Part shown: positions 1 through 3,738 of the stretch, piece by piece | Layout: each line of letters begins with the position of its first letter | Numbering within the stretch: the first letter of the stretch is position 1 | From: a virus | Lineage: Duplodnaviria; Heunggongvirae; Uroviricota; Caudoviricetes | Virus record (IMG/VR): IMGVR_UViG_2690316188_000007 | Strand: one strand, 5' to 3' | DNA length: 4,067 bases | Position numbers and translations under genes: made by a program | The notes under the pieces: model-generated | What the model saw: only the letters and a program-made list of their open reading frames with translations | Database searches by the model: none | Told to the model about the DNA's origin: nothing

Positions 1-190
1 GGTCAAACACCCACGGTGCGCAGGACTCCCCGAACGTCGGGCTACCCGGTGCATCCACAATCCGCAGTTGTTTAAAAATCGCCAGTGCATGTGCAGCCTG
101 GTCCGGATAAATCGGAGCCGGAATAATCGACAGCCCCTTTTTCAGGCGCTCTGCCCAGTCCGGGCAGGCTGTGCTCCATACAGGTATCAT
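1..190 (-). CDS. Probable terminase large subunit, N-terminal fragment (continues beyond window start)
   Basis: Minus-strand ATG at 190-188 overlaps the TGA stop of the small-terminase ORF (ATGA overlap at 187-190). The frame is open for 63 codons to the window edge (MIPVWSTACPDWAERLKKGLSIIPAPIYPDQAAHALAIFKQLRIVDAPGSPTFGESCAPWVFD...). Assignment rests on synteny and coupling to TerS; too little sequence to see ATPase motifs. Confidence 0.6.
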   Translation of the reverse strand, partial: MIPVWSTACPDWAERLKKGLSIIPAPIYPDQAAHALAIFKQLRIVDAPGSPTFGESCAPWVFD

Positions 191-750
191 CCGTTGCCCT
201 CATTATCGTTATTCACCACCAGTCGGGGTGGCGGTGGCACCGCAAAACGGTTAGCCGCTTTTTTCGCGGCATCACCTTTTGCCGATTTTTTACCGGCATC
301 CCCTTTTTTATGGTGCGTGAACTGCGCCAGACGCCAGGCCGCATCCAGTGCCAGTTTCGGATCAATGCAGAGGTTTTCCACCAGGATCCGCCCCATGGCT
401 TTCACCGGATCGGGAAGACCATCCTCCATATATTCAATACCAGGAGACATCACCGCGGACGGTGGCATCTCCGGATTGTTTTCGTCCGGCTGTGGTATTG
501 CAGCCACCTCACGGCGACGGGGTTTATCCTCCTGCTCTGATTTTTTCTGCCGGTAAACAGGAACCTCATCCACCTCCACCGTCTCGCACTGTTTACGGGC
601 TATAAACGCGAGCACCTCCGGATCTTTTGCCAGCTGCGAGCCTTTAACCCTGGCTGTCTTCGCCGAATAACCGGCGGCAATGGCTGACGCTGTTTTGTTT
701 TTCCCGGACATGAGCGCCAGCGCAAATTTTCGTTTTTGCGTTGTCAGCAC
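187..750 (-). CDS. Phage terminase small subunit (HTH, Terminase_2-like)
   Basis: 187-aa ORF. GTG start at 750 is preceded by GGGAGGAGG; an in-frame ATG at 711 is an alternative start. N-terminal KRKFALALMSGKNKTASAIAAGYSAKTARVKGSQL fits the ..AGYS.KTA.. DNA-binding signature of this TerS family as I recall it. Lys/Ala/Pro-rich C-terminal tail. Stop overlaps the start of the downstream large-subunit ORF. Confidence 0.75.
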   Translation of the reverse strand: MLTTQKRKFALALMSGKNKTASAIAAGYSAKTARVKGSQLAKDPEVLAFIARKQCETVEVDEVPVYRQKKSEQEDKPRRREVAAIPQPDENNPEMPPSAVMSPGIEYMEDGLPDPVKAMGRILVENLCIDPKLALDAAWRLAQFTHHKKGDAGKKSAKGDAAKKAANRFAVPPPPRLVVNNDNEGNG

Positions 751-824
751 AGCCTCCTCCCGGGTCCAGAACGCACTCAGCCGGGTATGGTTCAGCCCAT
801 TTTTCCCGGCGTCTCATGCCGCAA

Positions 825-948
825 ATGTTAACTGCTGCCTGGTTAACATTTGCTGAAAAAGCCTGTTAACATTTTTTCCGCACAACAAACTGAATAATAA
901 AGATAAAAACCGCAAAAATGCCCGGGCAGCCAGTTAACATGTTAACTG
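825..948. repeat. Array of five GTTAACAT/ATGTTAAC 8-mers including an 18-bp perfect palindrome; candidate terminase-binding (cosB-like) or other protein-binding sites
   Basis: ATGTTAAC at 825-832, GTTAACAT at 842-849 (inverted pair with 9-bp spacer), GTTAACAT at 865-872, and overlapping GTTAACAT/ATGTTAAC at 933-946 forming the palindrome CAGTTAACATGTTAACTG (931-948). A-rich spacer 873-920. Located 75-200 bp upstream of the TerS start and downstream of the HNH gene. Confidence 0.45.
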
Positions 949-1024
949 CCCTGAAACGGGAATTTTTTCTCTGCGTGAGAGGGGGCGCGGTGTCCAAAGC
1001 GATCGTTTTTTACGCCGGATGATA

Positions 1025-1032
1025 CCCCCCCC
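1025..1032. repeat. C8 homopolymer tract (G8 on the coding strand) just downstream of the HNH stop
   Basis: cccccccc at 1025-1032 followed by gggttggg, 9 bp from the HNH stop codon (1041-1043). The existence is certain; the function is unknown. Confidence 0.9.
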
Positions 1033-1040
1033 GGGTTGGG

Positions 1041-1846: not shown

Positions 1847-2071
1847 TCAACACACTGGCTGTAATGCAGCGGATACCATGCGGCATTTAGCGGCATTCAT
1901 CGTACACTCCACGGTTAGCTCTTCATTCGTGGCATTCACCTGAAAGGTCCGGGAGTGTAATTGCGTACATTTACCACTGAACGAACCTTCAACAAGAACA
2001 CGACCACGCTGCAAAATACGGAACGGAATTGTTCCCTGAAAAGGTTCTACGGTTACCCGTAATTTCTTCAT
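1847..2071 (-). CDS. Hypothetical protein (74 aa), translationally coupled to Rz
   Basis: ATG at 2071-2069 overlaps the Rz stop TGA at 2070-2068 (ATGA), with GGAGGA 4 nt upstream inside the Rz 3' end. [45 protein letters not shown]...; no family recognised. Confidence 0.5.
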
Positions 2072-2562
2072 GTATCCTCCGGATAATAAAAAGCCAGCTT
2101 AGTGCACTGAGTGCGGATATATTCCTGCGCCCCTTCCAGCTGCTTCTGCATTGTCATCAACCGTTCTCTGAGGATGAAATAATCCCGTTCAGCGGTGTCT
2201 GCCAGTCGGGGGCCGGTTGCATTATCCACGCTGGAGGTGCCGGTGGCTTCACGCACGGTACCGGGGCAGGTGGCGTTGACCCGCAGGCGCTTACGACCAG
2301 CGGCAACATCAGCGCGCAGAGTTTCATTTTCAGCTCTCGCATCGGCTAATTCCTTCGTGTATCTGGCATCAAGCGCAGCGACATCTCGCTGGCGCTGCTG
2401 CATGTCAGTAATAGTGGCATTCGCCAGTTTCAGCTCACTGACTTTTTTATCGCGCTGCGCTTTGTAGGTGATGGCGTTATCGCGGTAATGATTCAGCCCC
2501 AGACTAAGCACACCACAGGCTACCAGCAGGACAATAATCACCACACACAGAACACGGTTCAT
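2068..2562 (-). CDS. Rz: Spanin inner-membrane subunit (i-spanin) Rz
   Basis: 164 aa from ATG 2562. N-terminal TMD then coiled-coil region; [55 protein letters not shown]...[24 protein letters not shown] aligns closely with lambda Rz as I recall it. The track ORF extends upstream to a GTG at 2646, but the lambda-like start is MNRVL at 2562. Confidence 0.9.
2157..2342 (-). CDS. Rz1: Spanin outer-membrane lipoprotein subunit (o-spanin) Rz1, embedded in the +1 frame of Rz
   Basis: 61-aa ORF wholly inside Rz in another frame. [61 protein letters not shown] has a lipobox (VSAC) and proline-rich mature region, closely matching lambda Rz1. Confidence 0.85.
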
Positions 2563-3204: not shown

Positions 3205-3738
3205 TTATCTGTCGATTCCCCAGCACGCCAGCGCGCTCTCCTGGTCACGACGGGATACCTGACCGTAACAGTTATTTGAGCGAATACGGCAGTCCCTGCC
3301 ACCGTCCTTAATCCACCAGCGAATCGCCTCACACGCTCCCCTGCGATCACCTGCATTAATTCGTTTATAAAACGTCGACGGAAAACACTTACCGGGGCCA
3401 ATGTTGTACGGACAGAATGACGCGATCCCCGCTTTCTGGGGTTCACTCAATGGCACTCTGATGTTTTTCTCCACCCATGCCAGCGCCTTATCACGCTCAA
3501 TGGCGTTAACCCGGTCGCATTTTTCCTTCGACAACTTCATGCCAGGAACGACAGGTTTGCCATCCACCAGGATGGCACCGCGGCAGATGGTCCAGATACC
3601 CGCGCCATCACGGTATGCCGTGGTGTGGTTACCTTCCTTTTCATCCAGAAACTGGTCGAGAATGTCAGGCGCAGGCGCACCAGCGGCAATCAGCGCCAGA
3701 ACGGCAGCCGACAGGCCGTATTTGATTTTGGTGTTCAT
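3205..3738 (-). CDS. Phage endolysin, GH24 (T4-lysozyme-like) with N-terminal signal-anchor/SAR-like segment
   Basis: 177-aa ORF from ATG 3738. N-terminal KIKYGLSAAVLALIAAGAPAP is an Ala/Gly-rich weakly hydrophobic segment. DEKEGNHTTAYRDGAGIWTICRG carries the Glu/Asp/Thr catalytic arrangement of T4-type lysozymes. Resembles lysozymes of E. coli lambdoid prophages. No SD before the ATG. Confidence 0.9.
   Translation of the reverse strand: MNTKIKYGLSAAVLALIAAGAPAPDILDQFLDEKEGNHTTAYRDGAGIWTICRGAILVDGKPVVPGMKLSKEKCDRVNAIERDKALAWVEKNIRVPLSEPQKAGIASFCPYNIGPGKCFPSTFYKRINAGDRRGACEAIRWWIKDGGRDCRIRSNNCYGQVSRRDQESALACWGIDR

Follow-up and report, generated by a model that had tools for sequence, protein, structure and literature searches.

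The 290-bp gap between the HNH endonuclease gene and the small terminase gene (TerS) of the window, by which we mean the whole 4067-bp stretch of DNA that was analyzed, is probably a cos packaging site, and the repeats beside its predicted cut most likely form a cosB-like array that is bound by TerS. Data from relatives of the window support the predicted position of the cut, a conserved core, and repeats that co-vary with TerS.

Gene Order and Prophage Family

The arrangement of an HNH gene, a non-coding gap, and terminase genes, from which the original prediction started, was borne out by the gene calls, with Pfam matches to HNH and Terminase_2 and with the start of the large terminase (TerL), 63 residues, inside the window (Table 1). 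Because all these genes lie on the minus strand, the order "HNH, then cos, then TerS" runs from right to left in window coordinates. The HNH protein corresponds to the HNH endonuclease of PHROG 589 (E 4e-44) and is labeled HNH or DNase in annotated relatives, in which the order HNH, gap, TerS, and TerL is also found. TerS starts with GTG in the window and with ATG at the same codon in relatives, and the 553-amino acid TerL genes adjoining TerS in relatives contain the Pfam domains TerL_ATPase and TerL_nuclease. The small DUF3950 gene on the plus strand occupies the same place in two relatives (L176 and L177) and is annotated in ON470626.

At 91–98% identity, the window matches the late region of Escherichia coli phages and prophages of the long-tailed, Stx-type lambdoid group, among them vB_EcoS-783R2, BP-4795, 2851, 1717, and YYZ-2008. 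A search of 5426 complete E. coli genomes located the gap itself (751–1040) in 1277 of them, at 2999 places and with up to seven copies per genome. No annotated feature lies beneath the gap match in the 10 records listed. Phage 2851 has a "putative secreted protein" annotated within the corresponding gap. A 43-amino acid ORF of the window (866..997, minus strand) is annotated as "putative Dnase" in ON470626; it spans the predicted cut and the repeats, crosses the relic TerS start described below, and is probably not a gene, and we rejected it as such.

Table 1. Genes of the window and elements of the putative cos site. Positions relative to the predicted cut are counted on the minus strand, with +1 = 979.
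Feature	Window position	Strand	Relative to cut	Remarks
Lysozyme R gene	3738..3205	-
Rz gene	2562..2068	-		Rz1 nested inside at 2342..2157
Small ORF	2071..1847	-
DUF3950 gene, 66 aa	1448–1648	+		Between lysis genes and HNH
HNH endonuclease gene, 121 aa	1406..1041	-		Last gene before cos; Pfam HNH PF01844, E 3.7e-8
Gap, 290 bp	1040..751			Between HNH and TerS
G8 tract (C8 on plus strand)	1025..1032	-		Upstream edge of core; G5–G9 run here in nearly all relatives
Block TATCATCCGGCGTAAAAAACGATCGCTTTGGACAC	990..1024	-		Ends GAC(AC) directly before the 10-mer
Predicted cohesive end CGCGCCCCCT	980..989	-		Expected 10-nt 3′ overhang; homologous to mapped CGCCCCCCCT
Block CTCACGCAGAGAAAAAATTCCC	958..979	-	+1..+22	A6 tract at 963–968
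Palindrome CAGTTAACATGTTAACTG	931..948		+32..+49	Two motif half-sites
T-rich spacer (A-rich on plus strand)	873..930	-		T tracts at ~+62, +71, and +79, about one helical turn apart
Direct motif copy AAATGTTAACAGGCT	865..872	-	+109
Inverted motif pair	821..853		+127..+159	12-bp arms, 9-bp gap; copies at +132 and +148
Linker to TerS	751..820	-		Shine-Dalgarno GGAGGAGG at 753–760; near-invariant in 53 distinct close relatives
TerS gene, 187 aa, GTG start	750..187	-		Pfam Terminase_2; PHROG 641
TerL gene, first 63 codons	190..2	-		Overlaps TerS stop (ATGA)

Predicted Cut Site and Conserved Core

The position of the cut can be predicted from a close relative. For the Stx1 phage Lys8385Vzw (MT225100), which was induced from an O103:H11 strain (Zhang et al. 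2021, PMC7946995), PhageTerm analysis of virion reads gave the cos class with 3′ cohesive ends of sequence CGCCCCCCCT (PMC7946995). On cos, termini, and packaging, that paper provides the 10-mer and the cos class only, and its site coordinates are garbled (50,977–50,953 in a genome of 50,953 bp). Lys8385Vzw belongs to the phage family of the window. Its TerS is 95% identical to that of the window, and its gap has the layout of the window and all of the repeats, with only a few single-base differences in the stretches read. The Lys8385Vzw record ends with ...ggacaccgccccccct and starts with ctcacgcagagaaaaaattcccg, a junction that aligns to 980|979 of the window, where the minus strand reads ggacaccgcgccccct|ctcacgcagag. 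Therefore, the homologous 10-mer of the window is CGCGCCCCCT (989..980), which differs from the cos 10-mer of Lys8385Vzw by one base. The left end of the genome would accordingly be predicted to begin at 979, heading toward TerS. The G/C-rich block gagggggcgcggtgtcc (979–995) and the C8 run (1025–1032) are present as originally described, and the cut of the relatives falls inside this G/C-rich block, in line with the nicking region that had been proposed for the gap.

A second line of support for a cut at 980|979 comes from the Burkholderia phage Bcep176, the TerS of which is 37% identical to that of the window. In TerS orientation, its linear record starts with CGCACGTTCC|CTCACGCGCAGAAAATTTTCCC and ends with ...CTAGAC|CGCACGTTCC, so that CGCACGTTCC stands at both record ends, at a position exactly homologous to the 10-mer of the window. 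A 10-mer at both record ends is the usual deposit form for genomes with 10-nt cohesive ends. Our literature search found no publication on how the Bcep176 ends were determined, and the phi330 paper holds no data on phage ends. Other Burkholderia phage records start at variable distances from TerS and were dropped as evidence for ends.

Among close relatives, the 10-mer is polymorphic (CGCGCCCCCT, CGCCCCCCCT, CGCCCCCCGT, CGCGCCCCGT, and CGCGCCCCCC; loci L006/L007, L173, L175, L177, and L089), so that prophages residing in one host may differ in their cohesive ends.

The predicted cut lies within a core that is found upstream of TerS in 23 genomes from Enterobacterales and Burkholderia with TerS relatives at 33–49% identity. 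In these relatives, a G5–9 tract is followed by ∼35 nt containing CGATCGC and GGACACCGC, then by the 10-mer, and finally by CTCACGCACAGAAAAAATTCCC with an A tract. CGATCGC and GGACACCGC are kept in the Enterobacterales relatives, and the GAC before the 10-mer is also found in Bcep176 and in HK97. Regardless of the TerS type, the block CTCACGCAGAGAAAAAATTCCC is near-identical across relatives as distant as E. coli and Burkholderia, and also in the candidate satellite islands described below. Across 53 distinct close relatives, variation is concentrated in the 3′ end of the HNH gene and in a few core positions, including the 10-mer. Because the core is constant while TerS varies, it is probably read by TerL and HNH.

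In several relatives (L013, L014, L017, L018, L021, L022, and L026, up to ∼150 nt upstream of the G tract) and in HK97 (L005:900-985), AT-rich repeats of the GAAATCATTT and TGATA.. types precede the G tract. These repeats may represent a cosQ-like or an additional recognition element. The window has no AT-rich repeats before the G tract, and its HNH stop codon lies 8 nt from that tract.

The same order of elements (G tract, GAC and a CGC... 10-mer, A/T tract, TerS) emerged from the comparison with the HK97 cos sequence that the original prediction had called for. The HK97 ends read ...GCAGGGGGGGGGATCAAATC...AATGAC|CGCCGCCAAA and GTTTGAATTTAACGCTAACCCGATTTTTTTAG...ATG. A G9 tract is located 32 nt before the terminal 10-mer in HK97, compared with a G8 tract and 35 nt in the window, and both HK97 and the window family show a GAC directly before a 10-mer starting with CGC as well as an A/T tract just after the cut. 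HK97 has 10-nt 3′ overhangs (PMC11331095), and its HNH protein gp74 stimulates cos cleavage in vitro (cited in PMC11331095). The full-length TerL from a relative at 98% identity aligns with HK97 gp2 over 489 residues (23% identity, E 2e-11).

However, the TerS of the window shows no similarity to HK97 gp1, and the HNH protein has no detectable similarity to gp74 beyond the HNH motif. Therefore, the designation "HK97-like" can be retained for the layout, for TerL, and for the cohesive ends (as seen in relatives), but not for TerS, which belongs to Terminase_2.

Instead, the N terminus of TerS (residues 2–57) matches positions 1–56 of the Pfam profile Terminase_2 (PF03592, E 1.4e-8). The TerS family profile matches the solved small terminases 21di, 4zc3, 3zqp, and 2cmp (E 4e-4 to 6e-3; 0.002–0.006 for the latter three), and the DNA-binding domain of SF6 is among its solved-structure matches. 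By these profile matches, TerS is of the SF6/SPP1 type with a predicted N-terminal HTH domain. HK97 gp1 uses its central tunnel to bind a single site of 15 bp (+15..+29; PMC11331095). Since the HK97 TerS is unrelated and acts on a single site, it provides no precedent for a multi-site array, and its binding mode is not transferable to the window. The TerS gene starts at +50 in HK97 and 40–50 nt after the cut in the short-form relatives described below, whereas it starts at +230 in the window, which possesses an extra array of ∼190 bp with five motif copies; HK97 in turn has the AT-rich repeats before the G tract that are absent from the window.

Repeat Array and Its Co-variation with TerS

The 4067-bp window contains exactly five copies of the motif GTTAACAT, all of them in the gap; shuffled sequences contained 0.13 copies on average, and none of 200 reached five. 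As had been predicted, the copies are found in both orientations (825–832 minus, 842–849 plus, 865–872 plus, 933–940 plus, and 939–946 minus), the palindrome around the last two is perfect over 18 bp, and the A-rich stretch at 873–920 is present. In addition, GCAAATGTTAAC and GTTAACATTTGC (821–832/842–853) form a perfect inverted repeat of 12 bp. The array spans +34 to +155 downstream of the predicted cut.

No match to the IHF site WATCAANNNNTTR was found in 751–1040 with up to one mismatch allowed. The spacer at 873..930 is probably an intrinsic bend, as suggested by its phased T tracts, the positions of which are kept in diverged relatives of the long form despite a different sequence.

Most relatives do not possess the extra array, and their TerS start codon is located inside the palindrome. 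In Salmonella phage FSL SP-016 and ∼18 further genomes, the TerS ATG lies in GTAAACATGTTAAC, 38–39 nt past the cut and after the ribosome site GGAGGG, and ATGTTAAC encodes TerS codons 1–3 (Met-Leu-Thr, ATG TTA AC). The corresponding ATG in the palindrome of the window (940..938, minus strand) is a relic of this short-form start, where the ribosome site has decayed and the reading frame is dead, and the TerS of the window begins with the same MLTTQKRK 190 bp beyond it. Given the short-form starts and a TerS start 190 bp further on in the window, the stretch 751–930 is lineage-specific. From its wide taxonomic distribution, we infer that the short form is the ancestral one. Since the palindrome is the only part of the array in most relatives and overlaps their TerS start, ATGTTAAC could partly reflect coding of Met-Leu-Thr.

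These observations bear on the possibility that the repeats are non-functional relics, the ∼190 bp having arisen when the 5′ end of TerS was duplicated or underwent illegitimate recombination, with TerS recognition confined to the conserved core or to the palindrome. Such an origin would account for the identity of ATGTTAAC with the first three TerS codons in ∼19 relatives, for the decayed start at the same spot of the window, and for the direct repetition of GCAGTTAACAT 114 bp apart, and short-form phages evidently manage without the array. Nevertheless, we regard it as unlikely: all copies change jointly between lineages, the copy positions and the phasing of the T tracts persist despite diverging flanks, the arrays of satellites use GTTACAC and not the start sequence of their TerS, and GTTAAC-type repeats are independently arranged in Pantoea and Morganella.

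Far less probable still is that the extra ∼190-bp segment represents a small MITE-like insertion with ends that resemble the motif by chance. Although the segment does not occur in most relatives and has similar sequences on its two sides (ATGTTAACTGGCTGCC and, as complement, GGCAGCAGTTAACAT), it was seen only as part of the gap at the 2999 places in E. coli, in a search for which the gap was the query, which makes such an insertion unlikely. Furthermore, a recent transposition does not agree with the diverged versions, those of satellites included, in which the layout is retained but the motifs differ.

The candidate function as a TerS-binding array is consistent with the variation among relatives. 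At short distances there is little to see: positions 975..751 are almost invariant in the 53 distinct close relatives, so that motifs and spacers give no contrast at that distance. In diverged E. coli relatives, by contrast, both the long layout and the copy positions (+34/+41, ∼+108, ∼+132, and ∼+148) are conserved, while the motif is changed in every copy at once, giving the classes GTTAAC, GTTTAY, GTTAACC, and GTTACAC across TerS variants. Loci of the window type, including those with the TerS variants P0019 and P0035 (69–80% identical to that of the window; L175–L178), contain the palindrome CAGTTAACATGTTAACTG, the direct copy AAATGTTAAC(A/T)GGC, and the inverted pair AAATGTTAACCAGGCAGCAGTTAACATTT. 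With the variants P0023 and P0033 (68–77%; L173, L174, and L090, the last a partial locus with only the last two repeat elements), the palindrome reads TATAAACATGTTTATA, the direct copy AAATGTTTATACCC, and the inverted pair AAATGTTTACAGGGCAGCGGTAAACATTT. The locus of P0038 (65%; L089) has the palindrome GGTGGTTAACATGTTAACCACC, the direct copy ATGTTAACCACC, and, for the inverted pair and other copies, ATGTTAACCGG, GTGTTAACCAGG, and GGTTAACAT. Pantoea and Morganella relatives show their own arrangements of GTTAAC-type repeats.

On the protein side, TerS of the GTTTAY lineages has E25 and the sequence KSARCKG, whereas GTTAAC lineages have KTAR(V/I)KG. These residues fall in the predicted recognition helix of the HTH domain and match the motifs at the level of about four specificity classes, not one-to-one. 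TerS relatives in genome contigs were retrieved by an alignment-based search, whereas a single-protein query gave no matches; a second search of viral contigs, with the alignment, returned close relatives only and no new motif classes. The concerted change of the motif, the kept positions, and the HTH domain at the TerS N terminus suggest that the repeats are probably cosB-like recognition sites of TerS.

The same data set can be held against the idea that the repeats serve another factor, such as HNH or a late regulator, or form an RNA hairpin that tunes TerS translation or mRNA stability. The inverted pair does fold into a 12-bp hairpin (−14 kcal/mol, z −3.6), and both of its arms are altered together, in a compensatory manner, in L173 and L090 (ATGTTTAC...GTAAACAT). 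However, the direct copies and the loop-less palindrome change along with the inverted pair. In each lineage, the direct copy matches the right palindrome arm together with the adjoining flank over 12–13 nt (ATGTTAACTGGCT, ATGTTAACCACC, and ATGTTTATACCC), and base pairing cannot explain this match. The fold of the whole gap is ordinary (z −1.5), no terminator was found, and no Rfam family matched anywhere in the window at E up to 1. A sigma-70-like match on the plus strand (843–872) is built from the motif, but this sole promoter-like match in the gap is weak and points away from TerS. Finally, satellites keep the array and TerS without HNH. Taken together, a role of the repeats for another factor or in RNA folding appears improbable, and binding by TerS is the reading that we prefer.

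An array of this kind resembles known packaging sites in part. In phage lambda, cos consists of cosQ, cosN, and a cosB with the order R3-I1-R2-R1, the ends are 12-nt 5′ overhangs, and no HNH protein is needed. In both lambda cosB and the window, several short repeats that resemble TerS sites stand in both orientations ahead of the TerS gene and past the nicking site, and a bend, predicted for the window from its T tracts, separates the first repeat from the others. Whereas lambda uses an IHF site, the window lacks the IHF consensus and has phased T tracts instead. Lambda further differs in its Nu1-type TerS and its 12-nt 5′ overhangs from the window, which has a Terminase_2 protein and relatives with 10-nt 3′ ends. 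The N-terminal HTH domain family of the window TerS is common to the G1P family of SPP1 and SF6. In SPP1, the G1P protein recognizes a set of repeated boxes, which lie in bent DNA that flanks the cut. SPP1 and SF6 package by a headful (pac) mechanism with permuted ends, in contrast to the defined cohesive ends and the HNH partner of the relatives of the window. In co-varying with the TerS HTH variant, the repeat sequences of the window family behave like those of lambda, 21, and N15, in which R sites and the Nu1 HTH co-vary between specificities (PMC4669245).

During late growth, TerS and TerL, aided by HNH, would cut concatemeric DNA at CGCGCCCCCT, leaving 10-nt 3′ overhangs, and packaging would proceed from 979 toward the TerS and TerL genes. 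In this proposed mechanism, the G8 tract, the GAC^CGC context, and the A6 tract would represent the family-wide core, probably read by TerL and HNH. The adjoining cosB-like array would offer five copies of an 8–13-bp motif, organized as palindrome, T-tract bend, direct copy, and inverted pair. The HTH domains of a TerS oligomer on this array would confer packaging specificity and hold the terminase beside the cut. We infer three parts of this scheme, namely TerS as the binder, the bend of the spacer, and the identity of the proteins that read the core.

Putative Satellite Islands and Implications

Homologues of TerS in E. coli (P0063 and P0055, 46–47% identical) are located in small integrative islands (L265:3446-11944, also L091/L092 and L179/L180) that encode an integrase and a replication protein of the AAA_25 or D5 type. 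The island in L265 comprises the integrase, the replication protein, the cos core, TerS, and a 307-amino acid homologue of a capsid protein. The islands have no TerL, portal, or tail genes, and their TerS is present without HNH. They carry the cut-site core of the window but the repeat AAAAGTTACAC in place of GTTAACAT; L091 has two copies of it, and L179 has about six, an inverted pair among them. By gene content, the islands look like satellites that could use TerL and HNH of the phage family of the window.

A separate observation concerns the PPompW prophage (L181:1046-2520), in which an ISEc20 element of the IS110 family abuts the G tract of cos (…aataaagtaac|gggggatcatcc, at window ∼1028). 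The order in this prophage is Q, tRNAs, and the insertion sequence, then cos and TerS. Because the lysis cassette and HNH are missing, the PPompW prophage is probably defective.

The islands raise the possibility, which we put forward tentatively, of a packaging signal in two layers, with a universal cut core and an exchangeable cassette of repeats and TerS HTH, in which satellites bring their own cassette and divert the helper. The first layer would consist of the G tract, the GAC^CGC 10-mer, and the A tract, to be read by TerL and HNH. The second layer would be the cassette, which in E. coli would have diversified into at least three to four classes (GTTAAC, GTTTAY, GTTAACC, and GTTACAC). 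By keeping the core and bringing their own TerS, array, and capsid homologue, the islands might divert TerL, HNH, and capsids of the helper. If true, the common Stx-type prophages would act as helpers for cos satellites that encode their own TerS, a class not yet described.

As a cos site, the element belongs to a kind that is known in general, and for a close relative the position of the cut is already in print; the literature searched seems to contain no description of the repeat array or of its concerted variation. Many Shiga-toxin-converting and other lambdoid prophages carry this packaging module, and their ends become predictable with a located cut site and a candidate array. Knowledge of the module may help to judge which co-resident prophages or satellites one terminase could package, and knowledge of the site can inform the design of transduction or cos-plasmid assays for the mobility of Stx phages. 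The natural set of TerS and site variants also provides material for studying DNA recognition by SF6-type small terminases in a cos system.
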